In this document: positions 908 through 56,469 of the stretch, in pieces | How positions within the stretch are numbered: position 1 is the first letter of the stretch | Layout of the letters: the number at the start of each line of letters is the position of its first letter | Origin: Candidatus Falkowbacteria bacterium | GTDB lineage: Bacteria > Patescibacteriota > Patescibacteriia > Patescibacteriales > WJLG01 | Assembly (NCBI GenBank): GCA_963747695.1 | Contig: CAVVFV010000010.1 | Location: 164,451 to 228,450, forward strand | Length of the DNA stretch: 64,000 nucleotides | Reading direction: 5' to 3' | Made by a program: the position numbers and the translations under genes | Notes under the pieces: generated by a model | Seen by the model: the letters and a program-made list of their open reading frames with translations, nothing else | What the model was told of the DNA's origin: nothing | The model's database searches: none

Positions 908-2173
908 TTATTCTTTTTCTTCTTTCTTAGCCTTCTTGGCCTTTTTCGGCTTGTCCTCTGAAGCTTTAGCGGAGGAGGATTTTTCTTCCTTAGCCTCTTC
1001 TTTCTTCTCGGATTTTTCTTCAGCCTTTTCGATCTTTTCCTCTTTTATCTCTTCTTTCTTCTCTGTTTTTTTCTTGCCGCCTTCTTTGACGACTTGCAAG
1101 CCCAGGCGATGTTCTTTGGGTTCGATGGAAGTGATCTCAAAATCCATCACCGTGCCGGCCTTGTAAAGTTCTTCGATCTTCTGACCAGCCAACAAACCCA
1201 ATTGTGAGATATGAGCCAAGCCATGGATGAGCTCGTCGAGTTCGACGAACAAACCGAACGGATTGACTTTGAGGATTTTGCCGTTCACCACCTGGCCGAC
1301 TTTGTATTTTTCAGCCACGCCAGCCCACGGATCAGTCATCAATTTCTTGGCCGATAAGAAAATCTTCGAGCCGTTGATGTTGATGATTTCCGCCTTGATC
1401 GGATCGCCGACCTTATACAAATCTCCCGGATTGTCGATTCTCTTCCAGGCCAATTCGGAAATATGGATCAAACCTTCCATGTTCTCGCCGAAGGAAACGA
1501 AGACGCCGAAATCGGTGACGGCAGTAACTTCGCCTTCCACAACCGCGCCGACCTGGTACTTACTGATAACATCTTTTTGATTTTCGCTCCAGGCTTCTTT
1601 TTCACTGAAGATGATCTTATTCTCATTCTCGTCCAAAGTCATCACCTTGGTTTCCATATCCATACCGACAAACGATTTCAATTTTTCCAAAATCTTGGAT
1701 TTGTCGCCGCCTGAAACGCGGGGATAATTTTCCGGCGCCAATTGGGAAACCGGCAAGAAACCGGAAATCTGGCGGAAGCGGACCAACAGGCCGCCTTTGT
1801 TGCCGTCGATAACTTTGACTTTGACATTGGTCTTGTCCTTGTACGCTTCGCGCAGAGTGTCCCAGGCTTTTTCCTGACCGGCAATGCGGAAAGACAATTC
1901 CAATTCACCGTGTTCATTTTCCAGATCGACCACCGTGGCGTCGACTTCGTCGCCCGGTTTCAAGTTGGCGTATTCATCGGCTTCGCCGTAAAGCTCCGGA
2001 CCGCGAACCACGCCGACCAAAATGCCATTGATGTCCAAACGGACTTCCGCTTTCGAGGCAGCCAAAACCGTGCCCCTAACTGCTTCGCCGACAGCCGGAA
2101 CGACCAATTTATCTTTCTCCAAGAGCTTGGCAAATGCCTCCTGCTCCGGAGTTAAATTCTTCTTCTCTTCCAT
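908..2173 (-). CDS. rpsA: 30S ribosomal protein S1 (4 S1 domains, Lys/Glu-rich tail)
   Basis: 421-aa ORF with repeated S1 motifs (GTVLAASKAEV..., VKVKVIDGNKGGLLV..., GAVVEGEVTAVTDFGVFV..., GQVVNGKILKVNPFGLFVEL) and a KEEKEE C-terminal tail. Confidence 0.8.
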   Translation of the reverse strand: MEEKKNLTPEQEAFAKLLEKDKLVVPAVGEAVRGTVLAASKAEVRLDINGILVGVVRGPELYGEADEYANLKPGDEVDATVVDLENEHGELELSFRIAGQEKAWDTLREAYKDKTNVKVKVIDGNKGGLLVRFRQISGFLPVSQLAPENYPRVSGGDKSKILEKLKSFVGMDMETKVMTLDENENKIIFSEKEAWSENQKDVISKYQVGAVVEGEVTAVTDFGVFVSFGENMEGLIHISELAWKRIDNPGDLYKVGDPIKAEIININGSKIFLSAKKLMTDPWAGVAEKYKVGQVVNGKILKVNPFGLFVELDELIHGLAHISQLGLLAGQKIEELYKAGTVMDFEITSIEPKEHRLGLQVVKEGGKKKTEKKEEIKEEKIEKAEEKSEKKEEAKEEKSSSAKASEDKPKKAKKAKKEEKE

Positions 2174-2382
2174 AAAATTATAATGCTAATTTTCGAATGA
2201 TGCGAATCTACGAATATAGATTCTATTTAATCCAACAAAAAAAGCATTTTAACCCGCGCATTCTTTAGTTAGAATACCGAGTCCCCCGACCACCTTAAAT
2301 CAAGGGTTTTGTTATAGGTGATAATGATTATAAATGACTGATGATATATTAGTATAAACCACAAAAAATTGCAAGAGCGGAC

Positions 2383-3561
2383 CTATTTGATAAACATCGC
2401 GTCGCCATAACTGTAAAACCGATATTTTTTCTTAATCGCCTCTCGATAGGCGCGATCGATATTTTTCTTGCCGGCCAAAGCGGAAACTAACATCAATAAA
2501 GTCGATTTGGGCAGATGGAAATTGGTGATCATAGCATCGACGATCTTGAATTTATATCCCGGATAAATAAAAATATCCACCCAATCCTTGAAGCCGCGTA
2601 GGCCCGCAATACTTTGCGGGCAGGCTTTTTCCTGCCAGCAGGCTTCCAAACTTCTCGCGCTTGTCGTTCCCACGGCGATTATCCGTGACCGCGGAACGCA
2701 AGGTATTGCGTTCCTACGATTTATTTCCGCGATAACCTTACCAACTATCTCTACCCACTCGGAATGCATTTTATGTTCCAAGATATTTTCCGTCTTCACC
2801 GGCGCGAAAGTTCCCATTCCGACATAAAGCGTAATTTCCAAAATCTTCACGCCTTTTTTCTTAATCTTCTTCAAAAGCTCCGGCGTAAAATGCAACCCAG
2901 CCGTCGGCGCCGCCACGCTGCCGGCCTTATTATTAGCAGCATATACGGTTTGGTATTCTTGTTTGTCTTTTTCAATGATTCTCTCTTCTCTCTTATCTTT
3001 TCTCTGATTCTCTATATACGGCGGCAGCGGCACTTCGCCGATCTTTTCAATCGCTTTCATCAGCGCCGCGCCGGATTTATTGAATTGCAAATCCCAAGTA
3101 CCATCATGATTATTCTTTAAAATGACGGCTGTCATCCTGAGCGGAGCGTCAGCGGAGTCGAAGGACCCCTTCGAAATTTTAGAAACTTTAAGTGGTTCCT
3201 CGACTTCGGCCGTGGCGGCCTTCGCTCGGAATGACAGATGTAAATTTTCGCTCACCCGGCCACCCAGTAAACACTGCCAAGTATTCGCGCTCAATTTTTT
3301 ATGCAATAAAACTTCAACTTTCCCGCCGGTTTCTTTTTTCTTCGCCCACAGCCGCGCCGGAATGACTTTGGAATTATTCAATACCAAAATATCGCCCGGA
3401 TTCAAATAATCGATGATATCAAAAAAATGCTTATGTTCGATCTTGCCCGTCTTCTTGTCCAGCACTAAAAGCCGCGAACTGTCTCGCGGCTCAGCCGGAT
3501 GCGTGGCGATCAATCCATCCGGCAAATTAAAGTCGTAATCACTCAACTTCACGTAACGCAT
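2383..3561 (-). CDS. queA: S-adenosylmethionine:tRNA ribosyltransferase-isomerase QueA, carrying two in-frame repeat-element insertions
   Basis: MRYVKLSDYDFNLPDGLIATHPAEPRDSSRLLVL...VIPARLWAKKKETGGKVEVL...PLPPYI...IIAVGTTSARSLE...YRFYSYGDAMFI. It is ~40 aa longer than typical QueA because of the insertions at 2693-2714 and 3129-3237. Confidence 0.85.
   Translation of the reverse strand: MRYVKLSDYDFNLPDGLIATHPAEPRDSSRLLVLDKKTGKIEHKHFFDIIDYLNPGDILVLNNSKVIPARLWAKKKETGGKVEVLLHKKLSANTWQCLLGGRVSENLHLSFRAKAATAEVEEPLKVSKISKGSFDSADAPLRMTAVILKNNHDGTWDLQFNKSGAALMKAIEKIGEVPLPPYIENQRKDKREERIIEKDKQEYQTVYAANNKAGSVAAPTAGLHFTPELLKKIKKKGVKILEITLYVGMGTFAPVKTENILEHKMHSEWVEIVGKVIAEINRRNAIPCVPRSRIIAVGTTSARSLEACWQEKACPQSIAGLRGFKDWVDIFIYPGYKFKIVDAMITNFHLPKSTLLMLVSALAGKKNIDRAYREAIKKKYRFYSYGDAMFIK
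2693..2714. repeat. small palindrome GGAACGCAAGGTATTGCGTTCC inside queA (encodes NAIPCVP)
   Basis: 9-bp stem with 4-nt loop. Same family in the helicase and tsaD. Confidence 0.7.
3129..3237. repeat. PE-1 palindromic element copy 1 (TGTCATCCTGAGCG...CGCTCGGAATGACAG), in frame inside queA
   Basis: 109-bp imperfect palindrome. Near-identical copies lie at 24927-25038 and 25579-25692 (both intergenic). Confidence 0.75.
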
Positions 3562-3592
3562 AACTCGTAACTCATAACACTTTTTTTAAAAA

Positions 3593-3675
3593 TCCCCTCT
3601 TGCCTGCCCCGCAAAGCGGAAGTGTGCGTGGGGGAGGGGTGACTCGCGCCGCGAGACGGGGAGGGTCTATTCCCG
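3593..3675. repeat. GC-rich palindromic repeat (CCCCTCT...GGGGAGGGG family)
   Basis: cccctcttgcctgccccgcaaagcggaagtgtgcgtgggggaggggtgactcgcgccgcgagacggggaggg, between the queA start and the nuclease gene end. It stands out in an otherwise AT-leaning sequence. Confidence 0.6.
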
Positions 3676-3682
3676 ACATTGG

Positions 3683-4795
3683 CTATGCAGCAGTCTCGCA
3701 TAGGACCGCAGCACCACCCGACGTCCAATAATTATCAGCAACCCTACTTATAGCCTCTATCATACCGTCCACCTTACAATTCCAACCATCTATTCCAAAA
3801 ACAGTTCTATTTGTGCCCTTCTCAACATGGATTCCAACTTTAGCAATTAGCGGTTCTAACTCTGCTATCCTAGAAATTTGTTCCGCTGAGGCCCCCTTTT
3901 TTGGATAATCAAAAGAAATTCTTAAAACTCCACCTGATTCCAAAACAAATAATGGTTTTGTGCCGAGCGAATCAAACATTGCCGAAAAAGAACTGCGAAT
4001 TGCCCCGGTGCCCCAGATTATTTTAGATTTTTGTTTTGCAAAATCATATAATTTTTTAACAGCGACAATTTTTTCGCTATCCAAATTTTTTCGCACATCT
4101 TCAAAAAAACTTTGTTCATCCCATTTCATCCGAGGGCTCTCCGATGAATTAGCAGAAACATTTTTCTTTGCCTCGATACCGAATAATTTTGGGATCATTA
4201 TTTTATATTTTTCGAACTCATAATACTCCATCTGAACAGCGTAAATATCAAATTGGCTATTTCGATTAACGTAAACGATTAAATCCCTTAATCTATCGTC
4301 AATCGAATCCATTAAAATAACAAATTTAATATTGCCGCTTTGAAGATTTCGTTTAACAGCCTCAATCAATATGCCAAATTGATCATCATCAATTTTAAAA
4401 GAAGACACAACCTTTTCCTTAAAACTAACTTTAAATTTTTCACGAATTTTATCACCAATTTTTACTATAAATTCATCAAAGTCGCTATGTCGCCACAGCG
4501 AAGCCCCATAATCCAATGCTTGGGCAACGACCTTTCTTCTGTCTGGGTTTACCTCCCTCTTAGTTTCAACGACATAAATATCGCCGTCCTTATCAATAGC
4601 CAAAGCATCGATTGGACCCGATTCAGTCGCAAATTCTCTAGCTAGCACTAATAGCTCTTTATCTTCCTCTATTTCGTAAACGGGAATTGATTCCGGATTT
4701 TCATGAATATATTCTTGTAAATACCCTTCCTTCTCGATTTCCATCTTGTTAACCCTCTTTACCTTTTGACCATCTTCTAAAACCATTAATGGCAT
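3683..4795 (-). CDS. PD-(D/E)xK (NucS/RecB-like) nuclease-domain protein with ~280-aa C-terminal region of unknown function
   Basis: N-terminal EYIHENPESIP...ELLVLAREFATESGPIDALAIDKDGDIYVVETKRE matches the D...(D/E)xK restriction-endonuclease-like motif arrangement seen in the NucS C-terminal domain and DUF4263. The remainder has no motif I recognise. Confidence 0.55.
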   Translation of the reverse strand: MPLMVLEDGQKVKRVNKMEIEKEGYLQEYIHENPESIPVYEIEEDKELLVLAREFATESGPIDALAIDKDGDIYVVETKREVNPDRRKVVAQALDYGASLWRHSDFDEFIVKIGDKIREKFKVSFKEKVVSSFKIDDDQFGILIEAVKRNLQSGNIKFVILMDSIDDRLRDLIVYVNRNSQFDIYAVQMEYYEFEKYKIMIPKLFGIEAKKNVSANSSESPRMKWDEQSFFEDVRKNLDSEKIVAVKKLYDFAKQKSKIIWGTGAIRSSFSAMFDSLGTKPLFVLESGGVLRISFDYPKKGASAEQISRIAELEPLIAKVGIHVEKGTNRTVFGIDGWNCKVDGMIEAISRVADNYWTSGGAAVLCETAA

Positions 4796-13245: not shown

Positions 13246-14847
13246 TTATACTGTTGTCAAATTAACCGCGGCCGGCGCGGTTTTCTTGTCCCGGCGGCGC
13301 AGGAAATACCGGGCAACGCCGAACACGAGGACGATTACGGTAACGCCAAAGATGTTCAGATAGCGCATCGTTTCTTTGGCCGCGGTGGACGGCAAAGTTA
13401 TCGGCCGTTCCGTCGCGGTCTTGGCGCGGATATTGATCAAATCGGAATCCAAAGACAAGCCGTCGACCAGGTTCTGGAAGAAAAGCATATTGTCCGAACC
13501 GTCACCCGTGAACATATCGGTGGCAAAATCGGAGTCGCCCACCAAAACAATCCTGGCTTTATCCGTTGATCCGGCGCCGAAAGCGCTGGTCACTTTGCCC
13601 GAAACATATACCGCCAGATCATATTGGCCGGATTTGCCGCTGGCATTCGCGGCGGCTTGCGGATCAAGGACGAAACTATCCGTTTCGGCCAAGCTGTCAC
13701 TAGTAGATTTGGCCAGGTAAACGACGTTTTCGCCGGCCTTCGGCGTTACGTCAATACTTGATACCCAAGGAAAAATTATGCTCTGCAGATTGGCGACGAT
13801 CACATTGGATTTATCCATATTGTTCGGCAAAATTTTCGGCCAAAGCGGATAATTTATCATATACGTCATGCTGTAACCGCCGCTCGTGGAAGAAAAAGAC
13901 GCCCGGCCGTTGGAAGAAGCATCGGCGATCAAATCATTATTAAGCTGCAAACCGTAAGCGGATAATAATTTACTCAAGCCCAGATCATTTTTCGTCGCCC
14001 CCATTCCCTTGGCCACTGTCACGCCATCAGCCAGAAGGATCAGCGACTTGCCTTTCATCACGAACGCATCGATCTTTTTCAATTCATCGTCGGTGAATTT
14101 ATCCTGCGGACCGACGATCAGCAATGTGCTGACATCATCGGTGATCTGATCTTTAGCCAGATCGATATTCTTGACCTCGTAAAGGTCGCTGAGTTTGGCA
14201 TAAGCCTGCGTCATCAAGGTGTCGCCCGAGTTCGGATCGCCGGTGGTCGGCACAGTCTTGTTGCTGGTCACCAGGCCGATGACCGGCAAATTTTTTCCGG
14301 CTAATTTTTTGATATCGGAAGTGACCTGATATTCCAGATTCGAGGTATCGCTCACCACCGGGATGACTTCGGTCTTGCCGCCATACTGCAAAACGATCCC
14401 CAGATAGCCGTTGACGACCTGGTAAGAATCATTGCGCATCACATTGAACTGCAAAGTCGGAATGCCCTTGGCCGCCAATTCGTTGGAGGCGTCTTTCAAG
14501 GTAGCCGGATCAATCATTTGCACTTTTATTTTCCCGTTGGAATAGCTGGAGTATTCAGCCAACAGATCACTGACTTGCTGCTGCAAATCCAAATATTGCG
14601 CGGGCAGATTCTTGCTGAAATAAGCCTTAATATTGACAACATCGTCAAGATTGGCGGCGGTTTTTTTGCTGGCGGTCGACAAAGAGTAATCACCGTTGGC
14701 AGTCAGATCCCAGCGGAAATGTAACTGGCTGAAAATAAAATTAATAACAAGCAAGAGACCGATAATAATAACAATTGTAATAAAATTATCACCTTGCTTT
14801 GGCAGCTTCCACGCCCTGATCCGTTTCGTTATATCGAAAAATTTCAT
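13246..14847 (-). CDS. GldG-like ABC-transporter auxiliary component (TM helix at both ends)
   Basis: N-terminus ...IVIIIGLLLVINFIFSQLHFRWDLTANGDYSLSTASKKTAANLDDVVNIKAYFS... matches the GldG N-terminus. C-terminal TM VTVIVLVFGVARYF. 533 aa. Confidence 0.7.
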   Translation of the reverse strand: MKFFDITKRIRAWKLPKQGDNFITIVIIIGLLLVINFIFSQLHFRWDLTANGDYSLSTASKKTAANLDDVVNIKAYFSKNLPAQYLDLQQQVSDLLAEYSSYSNGKIKVQMIDPATLKDASNELAAKGIPTLQFNVMRNDSYQVVNGYLGIVLQYGGKTEVIPVVSDTSNLEYQVTSDIKKLAGKNLPVIGLVTSNKTVPTTGDPNSGDTLMTQAYAKLSDLYEVKNIDLAKDQITDDVSTLLIVGPQDKFTDDELKKIDAFVMKGKSLILLADGVTVAKGMGATKNDLGLSKLLSAYGLQLNNDLIADASSNGRASFSSTSGGYSMTYMINYPLWPKILPNNMDKSNVIVANLQSIIFPWVSSIDVTPKAGENVVYLAKSTSDSLAETDSFVLDPQAAANASGKSGQYDLAVYVSGKVTSAFGAGSTDKARIVLVGDSDFATDMFTGDGSDNMLFFQNLVDGLSLDSDLINIRAKTATERPITLPSTAAKETMRYLNIFGVTVIVLVFGVARYFLRRRDKKTAPAAVNLTTV

Positions 14848-14865
14848 ATTTTTAAATTATTAAAT

Positions 14866-14958
14866 GTTATATTGTTATATTGTTACTCAACGAATTTGAT
14901 TACTCGGCGCATTTTTTTCACAACGCAACAATATGACAATATATCAATATGGCAATTT
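14866..14958. repeat. AT-rich palindromic element (ATATTGTT arms), family copy 3
   Basis: gttatattgttatattgttactcaacgaatttgattactcggcgcatttttttcacaacgcaacaatatgacaatatatcaatatggcaat, immediately upstream of the GldG-like start. Confidence 0.6.
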
Positions 14959-14962
14959 TATA

Positions 14963-15697
14963 CTATCGCCACGCCCGTTTCTGAATAACCTGCGCGTTGA
15001 GCCAGAGGAATAAGAAAATAAAAGTCAGGTAATAAACGATATCTTGAGAATCGATCACGCCGCGGGCAATACTGTCAAAATGCGTGCCCAATCCCAGAAA
15101 GGCGAAGACGGGGGCGATAGCGGGCGGCGCTACCTGGAGGACAAAGCTGGAACCGACGATCAGCGCCGCGAAACAAGCGACTAAGCCGAGTACGAAAGCG
15201 ATGATCTGATTGCGGGTCAGCGCCGACAGGAAAAGCCCAAGCGACAAATAAGCGCCGGCCAAGAAGATCGATCCCAGATAACTGCCGATCAGCGGACCGA
15301 AATCCAGCCGGCCCAGGAAAGAAATGGAAACCGGAATGGTAAAAGTCAAAGCCAGGGCGATGATCATAAAACATAAAGCGCCCAAAAATTTAGCCAGCAC
15401 GGCTTGCCAGGTGGTGATCGGCAAGGTCAGCAGAAATTCGATCGTGCCGGATTTTTTTTCTTCCGCCCAAAGCCGCATTGTTACGGCCGGCGAGAGAAAT
15501 AAGAAAATCCAGGGCAGCAGCGCGAAATATTCGCGCATGCTCGCTTCCTGATAAATGAAAAAATTCTGGAAGAAAAGCCAGTTGCCGGCCACCAAAAACA
15601 CCGCAATGAATATGTAGGCGATCGGGGAATTGAAATAGGACATCAGCTCCTTCTTAAATAAAGTCCAGATTATTTTGAAATATTGTTTATTATTCAT
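14963..15697 (-). CDS. ABC-2 family transporter permease (GldF-like)
   Basis: 244 aa, six predicted TM segments. Adjacent to the ABC ATPase. Confidence 0.7.
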   Translation of the reverse strand: MNNKQYFKIIWTLFKKELMSYFNSPIAYIFIAVFLVAGNWLFFQNFFIYQEASMREYFALLPWIFLFLSPAVTMRLWAEEKKSGTIEFLLTLPITTWQAVLAKFLGALCFMIIALALTFTIPVSISFLGRLDFGPLIGSYLGSIFLAGAYLSLGLFLSALTRNQIIAFVLGLVACFAALIVGSSFVLQVAPPAIAPVFAFLGLGTHFDSIARGVIDSQDIVYYLTFIFLFLWLNAQVIQKRAWR

Positions 15698-15847
15698 AAT
15701 TATATCAATTTTTGAATTTTTAATTTTGTAATTTTTAAATAAGTCTTAATTTTTAATTATTAAACTTTGAAATTACCGCTGGTTTAAAAATTAATAATTT
15801 GACCTTAAAAATTATTTAGAAATTAAAAATTATAAAAATTTAAAAAT

Positions 15848-16774
15848 TTATTTTGTCAGTTCCCTAAACGCGTCTTCCAGCGACGCCTGATACTTGGCAA
15901 TCTCCAAAACATTGAACCCGCCGATGATCAGCGCCTTGTTGATCGCGGCCCGGGCATCGCGGCCCGCTTCAGTTTCCACCTCATATAAGATGGCGCTGCC
16001 TTCCTGCCCGACCGGCACAACTTTAGTCACTCCCGGGGTTTTGCCCAACAGCGCCAAAACTTTTTCCTTGGCGCCTTCAACTTTTATCTTTACCATCTCC
16101 CTGGATTTGGTCTGCTTGATCAATTCGGCCGGACTGCCTTCGCCGACGATTTTTCCGTTATTGATGATAATCACCCGGTCGCAAACCGCGCTCACCTCGC
16201 CCAGAATATGCGTGGAAAAAATCACGGTTTTTTCTTTGCCGATCTTCTTGATCAACTCGCGGATCTCCATTATCTGATTCGGGTCCAAGCCGGTAGTCGG
16301 TTCATCCAAAATCAAAACATCTGGATTGCCCATGATCGCCTGCGCCAATCCCACTCTTTGCCGATAGCCTTTGGATAATTCGTCGATCAATTTATTCATC
16401 ACTCCGGAAACGCCGCAAGCCGCCGCCACTTCCGCCAGCCGCGACTTCAGTTTTTCACCCGACAAGCCGCGCATTTCCGCCACGAATTTCAGATACTCTC
16501 TGACTTTCAGATCTTCGTAAAGCGGCACGGTTTCCGGCAGATAGCCGATCTTGGCCCGAGTCGCGAGAGAATTATTGACTGCATCGATACCGTCGATCGT
16601 AATCGAACCGGAAGTCGGAGTCCAAAAAGAAGTGAGGATCTTCATCGTCGAAGTCTTGCCCGCGCCGTTCGGGCCCAAAAAACCGAGGATCTCCCCGGTC
16701 TTAACCGAGAAGGAAATATCGTTCAAAATCTGGGTATTACCGATCTTTTTGGTGAGATTTTTGATTTCGATCAT
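15848..16774 (-). CDS. ABC transporter ATP-binding protein (GldA-like)
   Basis: GPNGAGKTST (Walker A), LSKGYRQRVGLAQA (signature), ILILDEPTTGLD (Walker B). Confidence 0.9.
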   Translation of the reverse strand: MIEIKNLTKKIGNTQILNDISFSVKTGEILGFLGPNGAGKTSTMKILTSFWTPTSGSITIDGIDAVNNSLATRAKIGYLPETVPLYEDLKVREYLKFVAEMRGLSGEKLKSRLAEVAAACGVSGVMNKLIDELSKGYRQRVGLAQAIMGNPDVLILDEPTTGLDPNQIMEIRELIKKIGKEKTVIFSTHILGEVSAVCDRVIIINNGKIVGEGSPAELIKQTKSREMVKIKVEGAKEKVLALLGKTPGVTKVVPVGQEGSAILYEVETEAGRDARAAINKALIIGGFNVLEIAKYQASLEDAFRELTK

Positions 16775-16883
16775 ATTTAAAAAAAATTATTATCTTAGAA
16801 TTTCCGCCGAACGGACTATTAATACTAATACGACAAAACTATATTTTTGTGACATCTAATGTGTAATCTTACCAAATAAAAAA

Positions 16884-36862: not shown

Positions 36863-36947
36863 TGGTGCAGACGGTGGGACTTGAACCCACATGAATTGCT
36901 TCACAAGCTCCTAAGGCTTGCGCGTATACCAGTTCCGCCACGTCTGC
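36863..36947 (-). tRNA. tRNA-Leu (anticodon TAG), class II with long variable arm, CCA encoded
   Basis: Minus-strand read GCAGACGTGGCGGAACTGGTATACGCGCAAGCCTTAGGAGCTTGTGAAGCAATTCATGTGGGTTCAAGTCCCACCGTCTGCACCA. Acceptor GCAGACG/CGTCTGC, anticodon loop CTTAGGA, T-arm GTGGGTTCAAGTCCCAC. Confidence 0.85.
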
Positions 36948-45254: not shown

Positions 45255-45382
45255 CTTGACTTTTTTATAATTATTATCTATATTATTACTAACATAAGTT
45301 AAGGAAAAAATCCAGCAATCAGCGGATTTTTATTTTTAAAAATAATTTGTAATTTATAATTTTTAATTTATAATTGATATAT

Positions 45383-45454
45383 GGTCCCTTCGTCTATCGG
45401 TTAGGACACCAGGTTTTCATCCTGGTAAGAGGGGTTCGACTCCCCTAGGGACTA
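45383..45454 (+). tRNA. tRNA-Glu (anticodon TTC), no encoded CCA
   Basis: GGTCCCTTCGTCTATCGGTTAGGACACCAGGTTTTCATCCTGGTAAGAGGGGTTCGACTCCCCTAGGGACTA. Acceptor GGTCCCT/AGGGACT (one GU), anticodon loop TTTTCAT, T-arm GGGGTTCGACTCCCC. Confidence 0.85.
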
Positions 45455-45668
45455 CGTAAAAGAAAACACTCGACCTCAGTCGAGTGTTTTCTTTTACGTA
45501 ATTTCGGGAGTCGAACTGGTTGCGAGCGAGCTATGAGCCGCGAGGGAACGAGCGGCGAATAAGCAAGCGACGCCAGACGCGACCAACGGGAGCGTTTGGC
45601 GGCAACCCCGGACAAAGGAGCGAAGCGCAATCCGGCGCCGAGCGACTGCGACGACTCCCCTAGGGACT
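45455..45668 (+). other. 214-bp GC-rich structured element X, copy 1: 21-bp perfect hairpin plus GC-rich core, ending in a 17-bp copy of the tRNA-Glu 3' end (CGACTCCCCTAGGGACT)
   Basis: Seen directly. ~96% identical to copy 2 (47420-47633). Copy differences include a compensatory hairpin change (gcgcaatccggcgc vs ggcggtttccgcc). Confidence 0.8.
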
Positions 45669-45680
45669 TCGGATAAATAA

Positions 45681-45710
45681 AAAATACTGACTTAACGCCA
45701 GTATTTTTTA
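45681..45710. terminator. bidirectional hairpin terminator (aatactgacttaacgccagtatt with flanking A/T runs)
   Basis: Downstream of cassette gene A1 on the minus strand. Confidence 0.6.
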
Positions 45711-45729
45711 TTTATCCGAATTTTTAAAA

Positions 45730-46392
45730 CTATTTTGCAAATCTAAAAGTTTCCACTATGGCTTTCATCATCGCATCCTCATTGAGTATATTAGATCCCA
45801 TTCCCGCCGTCATTGGATCAAATTCATAAATCAAGTTTCCTTTTTTAACAAAGTAGGAATAAGACCTCCCGTAAATAGAATCTTGGGAATAAAATGACAT
45901 AGCCTCATCGCTTGTAGGAATATCAACTTTGTTTAAATTTTCTGCTTTAGCCCCCTGACTAGAATATGCTTTTATAATCCAATCTTCAAGTGACAGATTA
46001 CTTACATTTTCGGATGCCGATATATTTACTGGGATATCAAAATCTCCACTAGACTTGGGGAAAATTTGCATGGAACCGCCATTTTGCAAAGATTTATCGC
46101 TTGATGTAAACGATACTATCCAATCCTTAGGAGCACTTATTTTATAACCATACTGTTTGTTTTCGTATGTTTGCCAATCGTTTTTATCGATTTTTACCGC
46201 ATCGATTTCAACTACGGTTGGGTGCTGTGAAATCGTCGAGGAAGCGATTGCAGACACCGGAGTAGAAGTGCTTATAGTTTCCTTTTTAACTTCTGGAACA
46301 GCTGAATGAGATTGATATTTAACAAAAATGATCAAACCCGCGACGATAATCAAAACAATGCCTACGCAAATAAAAATAATGTTTTTTTTCAT
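45730..46392 (-). CDS. cassette gene A1: N-terminally membrane-anchored extracytoplasmic protein, paralog of A2
   Basis: 220 aa. TM then Ser/Thr-rich linker. C-terminal ...AMMKAIVETFRFAK shared with A2 (...AMMKAIIETFRFTK). Confidence 0.6.
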   Translation of the reverse strand: MKKNIIFICVGIVLIIVAGLIIFVKYQSHSAVPEVKKETISTSTPVSAIASSTISQHPTVVEIDAVKIDKNDWQTYENKQYGYKISAPKDWIVSFTSSDKSLQNGGSMQIFPKSSGDFDIPVNISASENVSNLSLEDWIIKAYSSQGAKAENLNKVDIPTSDEAMSFYSQDSIYGRSYSYFVKKGNLIYEFDPMTAGMGSNILNEDAMMKAIVETFRFAK

Positions 46393-46481
46393 AGAATGAA
46401 ACTTTTTATTATGATAAATTTATAAATAATTAAAATAGGGGGCGGTGTTTTCTTGAACACCGCCCGATTAATAACCGATCA

Positions 46482-47138
46482 CTATTGGATGTGATAAACA
46501 TTGTAGCCCAGTTTTTGGTTAGCCGACGTAGGCCTGGTAAATGCGTAAAAGTCGGAATACGACACGAAGTGGGTAGAGATATAATTTTCTTTTGGCGGAT
46601 TGTTTGCCGGTGCCGCGACAAAATTACAATCCAGCATGTAAAAACCTTTCACGCCGCCCACTGTTACGTTTCCGTTTAGAAAAAAAGAAGTGTGCTGAGT
46701 AGGGTGATAGGTACCGTCAGCCCAGCGAACATTCCAATACATTTGGATAATGTCAGCTGGGACGCAATATTCGACCATTGTGCTTCTGCCTTGGATCGGC
46801 ATACATGGGGCATCCTGCCACATGCTCATGTTATTCGGATAATATGCCGGAATCTGGACGGCTTGTCCGCTTGCCGTCAAAACGACATGAGACACCCAAC
46901 CCCAACACTGCCCCGTGTTGTGGCCACCAATTTCGGAATTTGCTTTGGCAAGAATCTTACTGTCCCTAGTCGCTTGCGGCAATGCTTCCCACGTCTTCAT
47001 TGCCGTTGATTGCGTGCAACCAGAAGAAAGTGCTGCTATGGGTTGTGCGGATTGTTCTTTACTGCTATTTACGGGATTATTACTGCATCCCAAAACAACA
47101 AACAGAAAAGCAAGTGAAACAAATAGATTGGTTTTCAT
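46482..47138 (-). CDS. cassette gene B1: CHAP-domain (Cys/His amidohydrolase-peptidase-like) lipoprotein
   Basis: Signal plus lipobox ...VLGCSNNPVNSSKEQ. GQCWGWVSHVV (CHAP Cys motif) and ...TQHTSFFLNG (His). Paralog of B2. Confidence 0.6.
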   Translation of the reverse strand: MKTNLFVSLAFLFVVLGCSNNPVNSSKEQSAQPIAALSSGCTQSTAMKTWEALPQATRDSKILAKANSEIGGHNTGQCWGWVSHVVLTASGQAVQIPAYYPNNMSMWQDAPCMPIQGRSTMVEYCVPADIIQMYWNVRWADGTYHPTQHTSFFLNGNVTVGGVKGFYMLDCNFVAAPANNPPKENYISTHFVSYSDFYAFTRPTSANQKLGYNVYHIQ

Positions 47139-47419
47139 GCCAATCCTCCTTTGGTTTAGAATGGTTTAGTTTCCTGACAATAGTAATCAATTTTGAAAAG
47201 AACGAGCGTAAAAGAACCGGAACTAACTGGTATTCGCTTTCATCTCAATCTCCTTGTTAAGATTATACGATTTATTAACTATAATTAATAGGTTAGCAAA
47301 AAAAAAATGGCCTTTGTCAAATTTTTCAATAATTTAAGCCTAAAATTTTACTGGCACCAACCTTTTCCATTTCCGAATATCCTGGATGATGGGGTGTAAA
47401 TTCTCAATACAGTAGTCTA

Positions 47420-47633
47420 CGTAAAAGAAAACACTCGACCTCGGTCGAGTGTTTTCTTTTACGTAATTTCGGGAGTCGAACTGGTTGCGAGCGAGCTATG
47501 AGCCGCGAGGGAACGAGCGGCGAATAAGCGAGCGACGCCAGACGCAACCAACGGGAGCGTTTGGCGGCAACCCCGGACAAAGGAGCGAGGCGGTTTCCGC
47601 CGCCGAGCGACTGCGACGACTCCCCTAGGGACT
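47420..47633 (+). other. structured element X, copy 2
   Basis: cgtaaaagaaaacactcgacctcggtcgagtgttttcttttacgtaatttcgggagtcgaactggttgcgagcg...cgactgcgacgactcccctagggact. Confidence 0.8.
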
Positions 47634-47696
47634 ACGGATATAAAAAAGACTGATACTATCAGTCTTTTTTATTTGAATCGTTCCAATTTGTTCGAA

Positions 47697-48371
47697 CTAT
47701 TTTGTAAACCTAAAAGTTTCAATTATTGCCTTCATCATTGCATACTGATCAAGTAAATCACTATTCAAATCCATGGCACCAAAACCGAAAACATCATCGC
47801 CCTTTTTAACATAAGCACCATAAATCCCGTGTGACAATCCAACAAATGCTCCGTCGCTCGACGGAATGTTTATCTCCATTATTTGCGCGGGGTTATCCTT
47901 CGCTTCCTGGCGATATTTTTTAAGCCAAACTTCTGGTGATGAAGTGTCATGAATAATGCCAATTGCTGTAGGAGCATTAAATTTTTCATCGCTATTTGGC
48001 ATTATCAATAACTCGGTGCCATTTAAAAGATCGAGTTTCCCCGTAAAATTCCATCCCGCCGGAGCACTAATTTCAAAACCATACTTTTCATCCTTGTAAA
48101 TTTGCCAATTATTTTTATCTATTTTCACAGCGTTTATTTCTGCAAAGGTTGGATATGCTAAATTTGGAGATGAAGATGCTATCGTCCCCAAATTTGAGCT
48201 GCTAGCAACATTGTTCTGCTGGTTAATTAAAGAACTCGAAGAAGCAATTTTATTGACCTGATTTGCCCTATTCTTTTGATAACTTTTTTTCAATGGATAC
48301 TCTTTTAAAACAACAACTCCGACTACAAGTAAAATAACTGCCAGCCAAATTAAGATTGTTTTTTTCTTCAT
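47697..48371 (-). CDS. cassette gene A2 (paralog of A1)
   Basis: 224 aa, same architecture and conserved C-terminus. Confidence 0.6.
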   Translation of the reverse strand: MKKKTILIWLAVILLVVGVVVLKEYPLKKSYQKNRANQVNKIASSSSLINQQNNVASSSNLGTIASSSPNLAYPTFAEINAVKIDKNNWQIYKDEKYGFEISAPAGWNFTGKLDLLNGTELLIMPNSDEKFNAPTAIGIIHDTSSPEVWLKKYRQEAKDNPAQIMEINIPSSDGAFVGLSHGIYGAYVKKGDDVFGFGAMDLNSDLLDQYAMMKAIIETFRFTK

Positions 48372-48452
48372 ATAAATATAAAAATTATTTAAATTTAAAA
48401 ATTGGAATGGTGTATTCTGCTAAACACCATTCCAGCTAACTAATTGCTATTG

Positions 48453-49136
48453 TCACTGAATCTGATATACCGAAAAACCCAAAAGTGGATTATTCACGGT
48501 GGCGGTGGTAAATAATTTGAAATCCGCGTAGGTCACTTTATGAACACTAACCGTGTACTTCGGGCTAAAATTACAATCAATCCACATCATGCAATTTTTA
48601 GTGTCGTCCGTATAGCCACTTGTATTACTTACAACAATTGCAGTGTGTGGGCCTTGGGGACCCAAAGATCCGTTGGCTAACCTTGGTGTCCACCAAAGCT
48701 GAAATATTTGGCCAGGCGCAACCCAAGGAAGTGATGAAGCATTGCTATAAAGCTTTACGACTTGGCTGTTAAAGCAATCTGCACTTAACCATGAATAATA
48801 GTTGGGGGTGCCGCCATGATCACAAGTATTGGCACCGATCGTGATGCCGCTAACCGGCAAAACAACATACGATTGCACCCAAGGCTTACACTCAACGGGC
48901 GGAATGTAGTTACTATAGTTGTTACCATTCATTGCTTGCGCAAAGGCCAAAAGCTTCGCATTTTTTTGCGGTTGCGACAGTAAATTCCAGGCCTGCAAGG
49001 TAGGCGTTATCGTACAAGTGGTGGCTACTGCTGCAAGTGGTTGAACCAACTGTTCTTTACTGCTATTCACGGGATTATTACTGCATCCCAAAATTGCAGC
49101 TGACAAGACAAGAGCAAAACAAAGATATTTTTTCAT
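48453..49136 (-). CDS. cassette gene B2: CHAP-domain lipoprotein (paralog of B1)
   Basis: Identical lipobox region ILGCSNNPVNSSKEQ. CKPWVQSYVV and GPHTAIVVSN motifs. Confidence 0.6.
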   Translation of the reverse strand: MKKYLCFALVLSAAILGCSNNPVNSSKEQLVQPLAAVATTCTITPTLQAWNLLSQPQKNAKLLAFAQAMNGNNYSNYIPPVECKPWVQSYVVLPVSGITIGANTCDHGGTPNYYSWLSADCFNSQVVKLYSNASSLPWVAPGQIFQLWWTPRLANGSLGPQGPHTAIVVSNTSGYTDDTKNCMMWIDCNFSPKYTVSVHKVTYADFKLFTTATVNNPLLGFSVYQIQ

Positions 49137-49476
49137 ATCCAGCCCTTTGGTTGCTGAGTTGATGGTTTAATGATCTGACAATAGTAATCAATTTTTAAAA
49201 GAACAAATACTGAAAGAACATTAGCTTGAATCCATTTTTTCGCCTCCCTGTTAGAATTATACGGTTTATTAATGACTATTAACAGAGTAGCAAAAAAAAA
49301 ATGACATTCGTCAAATTTTTCAATAATTTAAGCCTAAAATTTCACTTATATAAATATCATCCATTTCTTAATATCCGCGATAATAGGATGTAAATTCTCA
49401 ATACAGTAGTCTACTGAAAATAAAATACCGCCACGCAAATTCGCGGGCGGTATAAATTATTCTGCTAAAAAAGAGC

Positions 49477-49866
49477 TTAGGCTTTACTCCGGATACCTCT
49501 GACAGCGCCGCTTTCGATGAGCGCGTCCACCAAACACAACGGCATTCGGATCTCCTGCATCCCCACATCTATTCCGCAGTTGACGGCTTTGACGTAGATT
49601 TCTTTTTGAAAATCATAGCCGGCTTTGGATATCGTGGCATGGAGAGCTTCCGAACACACGCGTGAAATCCTTTGCGTAAAATAGTCCGAGACATCGTAAG
49701 CAAAGGCCAAGGCCAGCTCCCTGGTCAAGGGCGCGGAAAGATCAGTCTCGGCCGTTTCTCCGCCTGAGAGCGAATCCCATTCGGCAAAAAAGGACTGTGC
49801 TTCAGAAACATTTGATTTTCTTACCAGCTCAAGGAAATCACCGTAAGTCTTATTTTCTCTGGACAT
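49477..49866 (-). CDS. hypothetical protein
   Basis: AAGGAGG RBS 7 nt upstream of MSRENKTYGDF... (start trimmed from the longer ORF). Own hairpin terminator at ~49440-49476. Confidence 0.5.
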   Translation of the reverse strand: MSRENKTYGDFLELVRKSNVSEAQSFFAEWDSLSGGETAETDLSAPLTRELALAFAYDVSDYFTQRISRVCSEALHATISKAGYDFQKEIYVKAVNCGIDVGMQEIRMPLCLVDALIESGAVRGIRSKA

Positions 49867-49979
49867 TCTTATCCTCCTTTGGGGTTTATTTCTCCCCAGC
49901 TTAACAAAATTGGGCATCGATGTCAAAATACAAAAAATCCGACCTGCAGCCGGATTTTTTATTTGAATTTTTTGAAAAT

Positions 49980-50588
49980 TCACCCCATCGCTTCTTCGAA
50001 TTTTTTATTCAAGACATCCCAATTCAGATTCTTGAAGAAGTCATTGATATACGATTTGCGATCCGAGCCGTAATCGATGAAATAGGCATGCTCATAGCAA
50101 TCGCAGACCAAGATCGGTTCAGCTCCCCAAACCGCGCCCTGATTGTGCACGTCGCACATATAGATTTTGATCTTTTCCGCCTGGCAATCATAGGATAAGA
50201 CGAGCCAGCCGCGGGTGGCCAGGCACGAAGCTTTGAAATAGCGTTCAAAGTTCTCGTAGCTGTCCCATTTTTCTTCGATCGCTTTTTTCAACTTTCCGCC
50301 CGGAACGCCGTCGCCGCTCAGAGCGTCAAAATAATGCTCATGGAGATAAACCGCATTGACCGCGAAAGTTTCAGCATCACGCAAAGACCGGAGATCATGG
50401 AAAGTCGGATTGACAGTTTCCACGTCGCCGCCGCCTTCGCCGTAAACGTGCAATTTGTCGTGGATCTCGTTGGCTTTGCTGACATAGCCTTTGTAAAGCT
50501 TGTTGTAATGAATGTCTAAGGTTTTTTGGGAAATTCCCGATACCTTGGAAAAATCATAAGTTTTGGCTTCTAATTTTGTCCCTTGCAT
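49980..50588 (-). CDS. Fe/Mn superoxide dismutase
   Basis: ...LDIHYNKLYKGYV...HDLRSL...AVNAVYLHEHYF...WGAEPILVCDCYEHAYFIDYGSDRKSYI... Confidence 0.9.
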   Translation of the reverse strand: MQGTKLEAKTYDFSKVSGISQKTLDIHYNKLYKGYVSKANEIHDKLHVYGEGGGDVETVNPTFHDLRSLRDAETFAVNAVYLHEHYFDALSGDGVPGGKLKKAIEEKWDSYENFERYFKASCLATRGWLVLSYDCQAEKIKIYMCDVHNQGAVWGAEPILVCDCYEHAYFIDYGSDRKSYINDFFKNLNWDVLNKKFEEAMG

Positions 50589-54907: not shown

Positions 54908-54982
54908 CGCGGGTATCGTATAGCGGTTATTATGCCAGTTTTCCAAACTGGTCATAGGGGTTCGACTCCCCTTACCCGCTCC
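54908..54982 (+). tRNA. tRNA-Gly (anticodon TCC), CCA encoded
   Basis: GCGGGTATCGTATAGCGGTTATTATGCCAGTTTTCCAAACTGGTCATAGGGGTTCGACTCCCCTTACCCGCTCCA. Acceptor GCGGGTA/TACCCGC, anticodon stem CCAGT/ACTGG with loop TTTCCAA. Confidence 0.85.
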
Positions 54983-56469
54983 AAAGAGAAACAAGACCTA
55001 TTTTCCAGAAATTTTTCACGCGCTTCGCGAAGCGAAGCGTAAGGTTTAATGGGCACAAATTGAATTTTTTTATCTTTCAAAAACAGGTTCGAGCCGGAAA
55101 TTTTTACGGCTGAAGATTTTTTATCCAAAAGTGATGATGAAATGGCGTTTTCGCCTATATTTACTGCGTCTTTTATCCATTCCCGCATCGGTTCGAGCCA
55201 AACTATAGACCCTCTCTTAAAATCGACGATTTTCTCCTCCAGCGACTTCTTGCGAGAGAGAAGACTCGCCTTCTCCGTGAGGTATGCCTCGCGCTCTATG
55301 TCTTGGTCTAAATATGCGGTAAGAAGGCGCTGGAGCTTCGCCTCGATAGCTATAACTTCTTCTCTCATCTCATGACTTACAGTTGCTGATAATTGGGCGG
55401 CCTCTTTTGCATCTTTGTCGGTCATTTTCAAGAGTTCTGCCGCCCAATCGGAAGGCATAGCATATTCTTTTAGGACATCAGTCAATTGCGCGATCAATTC
55501 CTTGTCTTTCATGTACGGTTGTGAGCAAGCCCCTTTCTTTTTGGTGCAGTGATAGTAAGTATATTCATGGGTCTTGCCGGATACCTGCCTTTTTATCTTA
55601 TGCTCAGCCGTAATGGAACAGCCGCACTCGCCGCACCTAAATAGCCCGCATAGCGGCTGAGGTTCGTTTTTAATCTTGTCGTGCGGTTTGCCGCGATCGG
55701 CAATCACAGCCTGCACGCGGTCAAATAATTTTTTGGAAATGATTGACTCGTGTGTGCCTTCGTAGACTTCGCCGGCATATTGGAACAGGCCGCAATAAAA
55801 AATGTCGGATAATATGCGCGATATTCTGTCCCGCTTGAATATGCTTCCGGTGTCGGCGCGCACGCCTTTCTCCGCGAAGAACGCGGAGATATCTTCAAGC
55901 CGCGAGTTGCCCTTGGCGTAAAGTTCAAAGGCGGCAATCACCACCTTCGCCGTTTTTCTCTCCACGATAATGCGTTTCGTCCGAACGTCGTTCAAGTATC
56001 CGAGCGGGGCGCGCGAAGGATATTCGCCTCTCTTAACTTTTTCGTGTAGTCCGCGTTTAGTGTTAGTGCTCAAGTCGATGATGAACTGGTTAGCCATGCC
56101 AAACTCCATGCTCATAACCAGCGTGTTGTCGGTCGAGCGATAGCTCCGGTCATGGGTTTGGATATGTTGGATAGTTCCCCGCTGTAAAAACCAGCTGATT
56201 TGTCCGCCGTCGATCGGATTGCGGGCGAGACGATCAAGTTTCCAGCAAACAATGCCTTGCGCCTCGCCTTTTTCAAGGCGCGAAAGCATCTCGCCAAATA
56301 CAGGGCGTCCAGGTCTCTTGGCTGATTGTTTTTCGATAAACTCCTCAACGATATTCAACCCTTCGGTCTTGGCCAGCGCCCGCAAGACGGCCAGCTGATC
56401 GTCAATAGAACGGACTTGCTTGTCTTCAACGTCAGTCGATTTGCGGGCGTAGAGGAAATAATTTGGCAT
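54952..56469 (-). CDS. large serine recombinase (resolvase/invertase N-terminal domain + recombinase domain + zinc-ribbon + coiled-coil)
   Basis: ...FLYARKSTDVEDKQVRSIDDQLAVLRAL (catalytic Ser region), ...GIVCWKLDRLARN, recombinase-domain motifs, CGECGCSITAEHK...YYHCTKK zinc ribbon. C-terminal 58 aa are encoded by IR-L and the last 9 aa by the tRNA-Gly 3' end. Confidence 0.85.
   Translation of the reverse strand: MPNYFLYARKSTDVEDKQVRSIDDQLAVLRALAKTEGLNIVEEFIEKQSAKRPGRPVFGEMLSRLEKGEAQGIVCWKLDRLARNPIDGGQISWFLQRGTIQHIQTHDRSYRSTDNTLVMSMEFGMANQFIIDLSTNTKRGLHEKVKRGEYPSRAPLGYLNDVRTKRIIVERKTAKVVIAAFELYAKGNSRLEDISAFFAEKGVRADTGSIFKRDRISRILSDIFYCGLFQYAGEVYEGTHESIISKKLFDRVQAVIADRGKPHDKIKNEPQPLCGLFRCGECGCSITAEHKIKRQVSGKTHEYTYYHCTKKKGACSQPYMKDKELIAQLTDVLKEYAMPSDWAAELLKMTDKDAKEAAQLSATVSHEMREEVIAIEAKLQRLLTAYLDQDIEREAYLTEKASLLSRKKSLEEKIVDFKRGSIVWLEPMREWIKDAVNIGENAISSSLLDKKSSAVKISGSNLFLKDKKIQFVPIKPYASLREAREKFLENRSCFSLERVRGVEPL
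54978..55152. repeat. IR-L: 175-bp perfect inverted repeat (partner at 56921-57094). Starts within the last 5 nt of tRNA-Gly.
   Basis: Verified by reverse-complementing block by block. Every 10-mer matched. Confidence 0.95.

Follow-up and report, generated by a model that had tools for sequence, protein, structure and literature searches.

This analysis concerns a tandem array of two gene cassettes, together with a structured element named X, in a 64,000-nucleotide stretch of DNA (the window; positions 164,451 to 228,450 of contig CAVVFV010000010.1, assembly GCA_963747695.1) from a Candidatus Falkowbacteria bacterium. Each cassette holds a gene for a lipoprotein, B, followed by a gene for a membrane-anchored protein, A, and the two units lie head-to-tail 3' of a tRNA-Glu gene, at 45452–47416 and 47417–49428 (~1.97 kb each). 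The locus is probably two superimposed things, a resident B–A envelope array of variable copy number and a separate element, X, that targets the T-loop of tRNA genes; a probability of roughly 0.55 is given to this reading.

The tRNA-Glu(UUC) gene (45383–45455, plus strand; ARAGORN, and Rfam at 57 bits) carries near its 3' end a 17-mer, CGACTCCCCTAGGGACT, which corresponds to its nucleotides 55–71 (45437–45453). A hairpin, H1 (45453–45500, inverted repeat I3), begins within the final bases of the tRNA gene and resembles a bidirectional terminator, with 22-bp perfect arms, a GC-rich tip and A/T-rich flanks. It is followed by X1 (45500–45673, plus strand), a five-helix structured element recognised by cmsearch (180 bits), folding and covariation, whose 3' end (45652–45668) is a second copy of the 17-mer. 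Beyond X1 lies a bidirectional terminator hairpin 3' of A1 (45668–45720, inverted repeat I4, 22-bp arms), which is homologous to the terminator directly 3' of tRNA-Glu in a second genome, GCA_028716485.1 (L001; other loci are likewise given by their L or P numbers). On the minus strand then come A1 (220 amino acids, 45730–46392; open reading frame (ORF), alignment and the fold of its paralogue A2), a GC-rich terminator- or attenuator-like hairpin (46440–46465), B1 (a 218-amino-acid lipoprotein, 46482–47138; ORF, motif, AlphaFold2 (AF2) model and relatives) and leader 1, the promoter and 5' untranslated region (5'UTR) of B1 (47139–47416; -10 TATAAT at 47267–47262, ribosome-binding site AAAGGAGG).

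The second unit repeats this order. Hairpin H2 (47418–47465, inverted repeats I1/I2) is unlike H1 at one base, in the loop; X2 (47465–47638, plus strand; 188 bits) contains the third copy of the 17-mer (47617–47633), where the match reaches 20 nt; and a bidirectional terminator (47640–47672, inverted repeat I8) lies 3' of A2. On the minus strand follow A2 (224 amino acids, 47697–48371), the lipoprotein B2 (227 amino acids, 48453–49136) and leader 2, the promoter and 5'UTR of B2 (49137–49428; -10 at 49261–49256). By alignment, A2 and B2 are paralogues of A1 and B1 and orthologues of the A and B genes of cassette 2 in L001. Leader 2 terminates in ...CAGTAGTCTAC, a junction motif that is also found ahead of H2.

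The repeats bear out the two head-to-tail units that the original prediction, made from the sequence without database searches, had described. Direct repeats in the array are spaced 1965–2001 bp apart (repeat finder) and comprise the X block (231 nt at 95%; 45452–45682/47417–47647), a region upstream of B (185 nt at 81%; 47250–47434/49244–49428) and weaker repeats over the 5' end of B (125 nt at 70%) and the 3' end of A (77 nt at 78%). Divergence between the units is strongly non-uniform across coding and non-coding parts, uniform divergence having been named beforehand as the pattern that would speak against the prediction: sliding identity is 0.92–1.0 in X, 0.85 at the lipobox, 0.58–0.83 in the upstream region and leader, and 0.3–0.55 in most of A and B. 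X1 and X2 are 96% identical (8 mismatches in 196 nt, one change being a compensatory C:G to G:C), while A1/A2 and B1/B2 share 38% and 34% identity (BLASTP), so that the claims of a near-identical X and of A and B diverged to about one-third identity both hold. The same is true of the att-like 17-bp copy of the tRNA 3' end in each unit. The only exact matches to CGACTCCCCTAGGGACT in the 64 kb are the three at the ends of the tRNA, X1 and X2, and no further site appeared with up to 3 mismatches allowed. The extent of X, on the other hand, had to be revised: its near-identity stands, but the first 46–48 nt are a perfect terminator-like hairpin (45453–45500/47418–47465) and not part of the structured core.

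The head-to-tail layout and the near-identical 230-nt blocks could also come from a trivial recent duplication or from faulty assembly, yet this is scarcely credible. The coding parts are merely 34–40% identical in amino acid sequence, and both cassette types have orthologues in independent assemblies. The independent genome L001 shows the same architecture with three units, which excludes an artefact and already refutes this reading.

On one side of the array are TsaD and tRNA-Glu, and on the other a 168-amino-acid protein of unknown function and superoxide dismutase (SOD), with no integrase among the neighbouring genes (Pfam scan). X1 and X2 are the only X copies in the window, both by a covariance model of the family (R1) and by motif search. 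The 168-amino-acid ORF (49477–49983, minus strand), between SOD and the array, has no Pfam, NCBIfam or PHROGs match; L001 has no similar-sized ORF at this position and an acyltransferase gene beyond SOD, and L053 has no counterpart between SOD and its cassette.

The B–A pair and its relatives

B carries a lipobox (LGC at residues 16–18 of B1), and B1 and B2 have no Pfam match even at E ≤ 1, which leaves both outside CHAP (PF05257) by its curated threshold. A likewise has no Pfam match. Neither A nor B gave anything significant against NCBIfam and PHROGs, and a sequence-profile search of the PDB with B returned nothing. The alignment-based AF2 model of B (mean predicted local distance difference test (pLDDT) 71, core 80–95) shows a papain-like alpha+beta fold in which Cys78 opens the helix 78–90 at its N-terminus, His149 lies within the beta-strand 144–160 and Asn172 is placed just past the next strand. 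A profile search over 1.8 billion representatives yielded 248 relatives of B, and conservation was scored in 150 of them: C78 never varies, and Q132, H149, T150 and N172 each reach 90% conservation or more. Among these 150 relatives, 41 match Pfam CHAP at E ≤ 0.01 (best 6.5e-7) and 8 match Amidase_6; the three matches with bit scores shown all fall under the gathering score. One relative is fused to PG_binding_1. B is accordingly modelled as a divergent lipoprotein of the CHAP/NlpC-P60 type with a candidate Cys78-His149-Asn172 centre, and on the basis of fold and catalytic residues it is predicted to be a peptidoglycan hydrolase. The CHAP-type Cys and His motifs noticed at the outset are thus upheld by the core of the model, by the invariant cysteine and conserved histidine and by the CHAP matches of the relatives.

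In protein A, a membrane anchor at the N-terminus is joined by a Ser-rich linker to a domain of ~150 amino acids, in keeping with the earlier view of A as a membrane-anchored extracytoplasmic partner. A low-confidence model of A2 (pLDDT 59) matches the Mog1/PsbP fold, which is common to the periplasmic immunity proteins Tsi3, TplEi and Smlt3025 of type VI and type IV secretion systems. The order B then A is kept, with both genes co-oriented, in all cassettes. Even at the unrelated locus L055, an A homologue (hhalign E 4e-46) comes after a relative of B with 33% identity to B1, which points to a conserved pair kept across divergence. From its fold, the conserved pairing and the parallel divergence of the two proteins, A most likely binds the B of its own cassette, whether to inhibit or regulate it or to confer immunity. 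B would be tethered to the membrane's outer face and cut peptidoglycan, with A anchored beside it. A GC-rich hairpin between the stop of B and the start of A is present in each cassette (46440–46465 and ~48404–48433, minus strand), conserved in position and not in sequence; it may set the B:A ratio, whether as an attenuator or by stabilising the mRNA.

Close relatives of B2 are rare, with 8 among 5.8 billion clusters, and the sole taxonomically named one is from Patescibacteria. L001 has three B–A cassettes and X copies in a region running from SOD and rubrerythrin to tRNA-Glu and TsaD, the P0007 contig has two cassettes adjoining TsaD, L053 has a cassette straight after SOD, and L004 and L055 have single cassettes at other sites. 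Cassette number per locus is therefore variable between genomes, in line with the original prediction: it ranges from 1 to 3 among the related loci compared, with 2 in the window, 3 in L001 and 2 on the P0007 contig. At least three cassette types can be told apart, types 1 and 2 in the window and the order 3, 2, 3 in L001.

Several further genes lie around these cassettes. In L001, two radical-SAM genes and a DUF5680 gene (14222–16438 and 16548–16808) stand between tRNA-Glu and the first X/B–A unit, preceded by just the last ~45 nt of a B leader, and an ORF of 86 amino acids with a GIY-YIG domain overlaps the 5' side of tRNA-Glu. Upstream of the array on the P0007 contig (JGI 3300075153, 2037–4765) are genes with Lcl_C, bAvd (weak) and PG_binding_1 domains, which suggests a nearby target and accessory set of the diversity-generating-retroelement type. 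In L052, an IS3-family transposase pair (HTH_Tnp_1 and rve; 1117–2183) directly follows the A gene of a type-2 cassette and sits within, or replaces, the A terminator region.

The original prediction took conserved borders around diverged genes as a sign of toxin/immunity or host-attack hydrolase cassettes, whose payloads diversify under selection while the borders are kept for exchange. This proposal agrees with a B modelled as a cell-wall hydrolase, with the fold that A shares with Tsi3, TplEi and Smlt3025, with the coexistence of several cassette types and with a recombinogenic 5' border. The selection data, however, speak against it. Unit 2 of the window is orthologous to cassette 2 of L001, with 78% (B) and 82% (A) amino acid identity and ratios of non-synonymous to synonymous substitution (dN/dS) of 0.12 and 0.15, respectively; for these two genomes, TsaD, SOD and rubrerythrin show 82–83% identity and dN/dS of 0.05–0.10. 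Between paralogues dN/dS is only 0.2–0.4, values that are uninformative as dS is saturated. Since orthologous cassettes diverge like housekeeping genes, the paralogues are old and not fast-diversifying. The comparison indicates ordinary purifying selection on the cassettes, and the low identity of A1/A2 and B1/B2 reflects ancient paralogy between types common to several genomes. Further, no delivery domain or secretion-system marker for B was found among the neighbourhood genes examined, its only signal being the lipobox, which would tether it to the producer's own membrane. Among the features expected of effector–immunity systems, a conserved adjacent pair is present, and a link to delivery and an elevated dN/dS are absent. 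The NCBIfam and PHROGs comparisons also offer no support (no PADLOC scan was made). Diversifying selection is not borne out, and the proposal as a whole is considered distinctly improbable.

X elements behind tRNA genes

A search of public genomes and metagenomes for a 19-mer of the 5' part of X yielded, under model R1, ~14 copies (12 near-complete and 2 divergent variants) plus fragments, from 10 contigs representing several genomes and metagenome samples. Two motif scans of viral contigs gave nothing that the covariance model accepted. The tRNA genes immediately preceding the newly found copies are tRNA-Ser(GCU), Arg(CCG), Gly(GCC), Gly(UCC), Leu(UAA), Lys(CUU) and Glu(CUC), so that X occurs at no fewer than 8 different tRNA genes and is always oriented like the tRNA. 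Neither B–A cassettes nor the leader sequence were found near these new copies, and the cassettes in L004, L053 and L055 are without X. X had been taken for a cassette border, a view that cannot be kept in the light of X copies behind other tRNAs without B–A genes and of cassettes without X.

The layout is regular: a tRNA gene, a gap of 41–55 nt with a near-perfect terminator-like hairpin, the X core and a tRNA copy of 16–22 nt. The hairpin precedes every tRNA-linked copy of X, and its sequence varies from copy to copy. The 3' repeat corresponds to that tRNA's own nucleotides from 57/58, in the T-loop, through the discriminator at 73; two copies are decayed, one is cut by a contig end, and that of the tRNA-Glu in the window starts at nucleotides 55–56. 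The 5' end of X, GGGAnTCGAAC (GGGAGTCGAAC in X1), is antisense to nucleotides 53–63 of its own tRNA and covaries with it at nucleotide 59 (Glu, Ser, Gly) and nucleotide 63 (Arg). On the left, X ends in A-rich hairpin arms and on the right in ...GAGCGAnnGCG, and no terminal inverted repeats were seen on X by eye; the element is too short to hold genes.

X1 folds as RNA to -73 kcal/mol, with z -3.7 on the plus strand versus z -0.8 on the minus strand. In a MAFFT alignment of 11 X sequences, 88.7% of the cells in the five helices are paired, and 17 pairs are changed on both sides; shuffles give 7.9 ± 1.6 (none of 500 attains 17) and slid controls 3–6. The helix cells contain 35 G:U versus 9 A:C, and 42 G.A cells (tandem G.A); there is a conserved GGAA loop, and the junction sequences are invariant or highly conserved. 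The G:U excess, the G.A cells and the GGAA loop, all RNA-like features, mark the plus strand as the folding strand. We thus read X as a five-helix family of ~175 nt supported by covariation, and X1 and X2 fit its model R1 in their helices, their junctions, the 5' antisense to the T-arm and the 3' tRNA copy. A protein-coding X was considered and rejected, as frame-breaking indels (lengths not divisible by three) and compensatory pairs separate the copies; several frames free of stops occur on both strands because X is GC-rich. The gathering-threshold scan of the window with Rfam 15 gives only 3 tRNAs, a scan of 45300–49600 at E ≤ 10 gives nothing over the X core, and nothing was found in the literature on X sequence strings or on miniature tRNA-targeting elements. 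X appears to be undescribed, having neither an Rfam family nor a literature match to its sequence.

These features might also belong to an ordinary cellular non-coding RNA gene, linked to tRNA genes and transcribed together with the tRNA or after it, with a functional tRNA-derived 3' tail and carried as a passenger in the duplication. The strong covariation across five helices would be explained in this way, as would the GGAA tetraloop, the tandem G.A pairs, the plus-strand excess of G:U, an orientation that is always that of the tRNA and the invariant junction sequences. It is, however, hard to reconcile with a strong terminator-like hairpin between the tRNA and X, the lack of a conserved promoter and unconserved spacers, or with a sporadic occurrence at differing tRNAs in differing genomes. 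Truncated, internally deleted or decayed copies, moreover, are common (Xb and Xc of L001, L032, L045 and the L022 remnant), and no Rfam family matches. A cellular RNA gene of this kind is rather unlikely.

The preferred reading, in which X is a separate element, draws on the signs of insertion. In L023 the order is tRNA-Gly, T1, X, repeat and T2; in L022 it is tRNA-Gly, a new hairpin, X, repeat, T1 and a ~10-nt remnant of an older X. Given this nested order, a second module would have landed beside tRNA-Gly in L022. A variant X after tRNA-Leu is present in L023 and not in L022, and in L001 tRNA-Glu is directly followed by the terminator that in the window follows the X-end repeats. X is thus taken for a non-autonomous element directed at the T-loop of tRNAs; the repeat would be either a long target-site duplication or an att core that the element brings along, and the active form would be RNA or single-stranded DNA. 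No recombinase or transposase was found beside X in Pfam scans of five loci, where the neighbours are Fmt, Def, SmpB, LytR, SDR and radical-SAM genes.

Some details of individual copies may be recorded here. Behind tRNA-Gly(GCC) in L032 (~1780–1850) lies an internally deleted X in which the 5' 30 nt are fused to the 3' GGCGGAAT...ACCCG tail, the deletion apparently lying between repeated GAGCGAG motifs. The tRNA-Gly beside the newer X module in L022 encodes CCA, and the displaced repeat and the tRNA-Gly of L023 do not; in the window, the tRNA-Glu that carries X has no encoded CCA (the sequence runs on as ...GGGACTACGT), and tRNA-Leu(UAG) and tRNA-Gly(UCC) (36863–36947 and 54909–54983) encode it. 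GC-rich blocks unlike X in sequence lie behind tRNA-Leu genes in L032 (1395–1600) and L038 (370–590, minus strand) and end in a copy of the tRNA-Leu 3' end, which in L038 matches the other tRNA-Leu allele (L022/L023 type) and not the adjacent gene. Several element families may share the tRNA T-loop site, or tRNA replacement may have occurred.

A more specific idea is that X represents, in non-autonomous form, a new class of nucleic-acid-guided mobile elements homing to the tRNA T-loop, in which the 5' 11-mer would pair with the T-arm and the five-helix scaffold would serve as a handle for a protein. Insertion would duplicate or replace tRNA nucleotides 58–73, the X-borne terminator would keep the tRNA functional, and near-identical X copies would drive the expansion, contraction and reshuffling of nearby cassettes such as B–A. 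X is reminiscent of guide-type RNAs (the omega RNA of TnpB/IscB, the bridge RNA of IS110 and the exon-binding sites of group II introns) in combining a scaffold of ~150 nt with a variable segment of 16–17 nt that equals a nearby target after the constant motif GGTTCGA, and in having a target-complementary segment. It differs in that the variable segment is partly paired into the scaffold and that X has no Rfam match. No TnpB, IscB, IS110 or reverse-transcriptase gene was found in any X locus. This idea is tentative and, on balance, unlikely.

Conversion and duplication in the array

The leader of B, ~280 nt with TATAAT and the AAAGGAGG ribosome-binding site, is 79–85% conserved across all close cassettes. 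This holds for the L004 cassette too, though B there is only 41% identical, and a stretch of ~136 nt remains 79% conserved even in the distant cassette of L055. That this reflects an RNA fold kept in the B 5'UTR was considered and rejected, the RNAalifold consensus being only -5 kcal/mol with weak covariation; the conservation is at the sequence level and consistent with a promoter or operator. As sequence is conserved without a convincing RNA fold, the leader is read as a constrained promoter/operator region. Within it, the CTTTTCAAAATTGATTACTATTGTCAG block in the B 5'UTR (47155–47205/49156–49206, minus strand) and AAAATTTTAGGCTTAAATTATTGAAAAATTTGA upstream of the -10 are near-invariant in all cassettes and genomes and are candidate operator sites. 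The possibility that the leader end is a decayed 3' half of tRNA-Glu was dismissed, its local alignment being no better than 20 of 300 shuffles.

The likeness of the borders appears to have a different origin from the divergence of the genes. Copies of X plus hairpin agree at 96% of positions in the window and at 92–98% in L001, but at only 70–80% between the two genomes, at or under their genome-wide nucleotide identity of ~78%. As identity within a genome far exceeds that between genomes, X plus hairpin shows concerted evolution by intragenomic gene conversion. A similar history was found for B when its first 105 nt (signal peptide, lipobox and linker) were compared with the remainder of the gene. 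Identity in the two parts is 0.67 and 0.78 between B2 of the window and its orthologue, 0.90 and 0.56 between L001 cassette 2 and the L004 B, and 0.78 and 0.53 between B1 and B2; in L001 cassettes 1 and 3 the first 105 nt are identical and the downstream part is at 0.75. The first 105 nt thus track the genome and not the cassette type, and this separate history implies conversion tracts spanning the leader and the 5' part of B. One of the options raised by the original prediction, namely gene conversion, is thereby shown for the borders.

The unit junctions read GGGA[CTAC]GTAAAAG, TAGT[CTAC]GTAAAAG and TAGT[CTAC]TGAAAAT, in the window's sequence exactly the pattern expected of tandem duplication at a CTAC microhomology. 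One inter-cassette junction of L001 lacks the hairpin-X-repeat block precisely between CTAC motifs. On its left side X2 has CTAC only, without the 17-nt repeat, and the missing repeat suggests that X2 arrived by whole-unit duplication and not by insertion.

On the preferred reading, X would have entered as an independent element at the tRNA-Glu near the B–A locus, inserting at the T-loop (nucleotide 57/58) and leaving the tRNA intact, with a terminator hairpin after it and a copy of nucleotides 58–73 at the far end, and would then have been co-amplified with the neighbouring unit. The array would have grown by tandem duplication or unequal recombination of the ~2-kb unit, and leaders and X copies would recombine homologously to change its copy number, the near-identity of X now giving homology for expansion or contraction. 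Gene conversion homogenises X and its hairpin, and the leader into the signal-peptide and lipobox part of B, the promoter being constrained.

Several observations count against this reading. The mobility of X is deduced from pattern only, as no recombinase adjoins any copy. X lies between terminator-like hairpins without a recognisable promoter, so that a role as an RNA is only putative, and the family is known from ~14 copies only. X2, lacking the left repeat, requires a segmental duplication besides insertion, and ancient duplication with conversion is hard to separate from repeated re-insertion. The model of A, part of the case for its putative binding to B, is of low confidence. Finally, the G+C content of the B–A array (45700–49400) is 30–45%, that of X 55–64% and that of the flanks ~48–55%; the array lies ~10–15% below its flanks, which would also fit a foreign origin and is not accounted for by a resident, syntenic array.

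The array might instead be integron-like, with [terminator-A-B-leader-hairpin-X] as mobile cassettes, a recombinase acting in trans at the T-loop, X in the role of attC and the newest cassette nearest the tRNA. Each X does close with a tRNA-derived core and folds as a single strand with conserved structure, cassette number and type vary between genomes, and L001 has its radical-SAM and DUF5680 payload between the tRNA core and an X-core copy; the comparison of L022 with L023 also suggests new insertions next to the tRNA. Tandem accretion at a transfer or transfer-messenger RNA gene is known from the ssrA islands of Dehalococcoides (PMC3146451). Like the attC sites of integrons and the attP site of CTX phage, X relies on stem structure over sequence, is strand-specific and stands at the end of each array unit, and, as in folded single-stranded recombination sites, the closing stem of folded X reproduces the T-arm duplex of the target. 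However, no integrase is present at the locus or beside any X copy, there is no IntI or attI, and X lacks the attC signature (R/L boxes, GTTRRRY) and has highly conserved junction sequences. The cassettes have their own promoters (each with a TATAAT region), the distal cassette A2–B2 has no X, and X2 has CTAC and not a core on its left. Further, B–A without X and X without cassettes both exist, the array keeps a syntenic position, and the divergence of orthologous cassettes matches that of the genomes as a whole. An integron-like array is hence quite unlikely, slightly ahead of diversifying toxin cassettes, and the notion of a mobile island is not supported in view of the synteny and the lack of an adjoining integrase.

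Known systems and significance

The B–A pair recalls systems of a hydrolase with its cognate inhibitor or immunity protein, such as Tae/Tai, Tse3-Tsi3 and LytE-IseA. As in B, the fold is papain-like with a Cys at a helix N-terminus and a His in a strand, a hydrolase is followed by a small envelope partner, and the fold of A is that of Tsi3 and TplEi. The present pair differs in that B1 and B2 are without a Pfam match, in that B is a lipoprotein without a secretion-system marker, and in that 1–3 tandem paralogous modules stand at a syntenic chromosomal site.

X, for its part, resembles integrative elements that use tRNA or transfer-messenger RNA genes by means of a tyrosine integrase, in having a tRNA 3'-end repeat from the T-loop and in restoring the tRNA; with islands of the Dehalococcoides ssrA type it shares repeated tandem units that each end in the core. 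Unlike these elements, X is ~200 bp long, has no integrase and has a covarying single-strand fold, and one X scaffold occurs at a minimum of 8 tRNAs with a matching repeat and 5' antisense at each. Casposons also target the 3'-distal part of tRNA genes, with target-site duplications of 14–35 bp and tandem insertions (PMC4779613). X is like them in its tRNA 3'-end target, long repeat and tandem insertion, but, ~50 times smaller, it lacks terminal inverted repeats, Cas1 and PolB (no casposon search was made in these genomes). The B–A modules are best filed as further members of the CHAP/NlpC-P60 hydrolase-plus-partner kind, and X among tRNA-targeting insertion elements.

Patescibacteria (the candidate phyla radiation) are mostly uncultured epibionts whose envelope enzymes and mobile DNA are poorly known. 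The B–A pair is a candidate family of self-controlled cell-wall hydrolases, kept as several old types per genome, whose target may be the wall of a host or the cell's own. X, if mobile, would offer a compact system for studying how the universal T-loop is recognised and how a gene hit by an element is restored, and would show how repeats sculpt adjacent gene arrays. Finally, the locus is a cautionary case, in that conserved borders around a diverged payload can come from gene conversion and old paralogy without diversifying selection.

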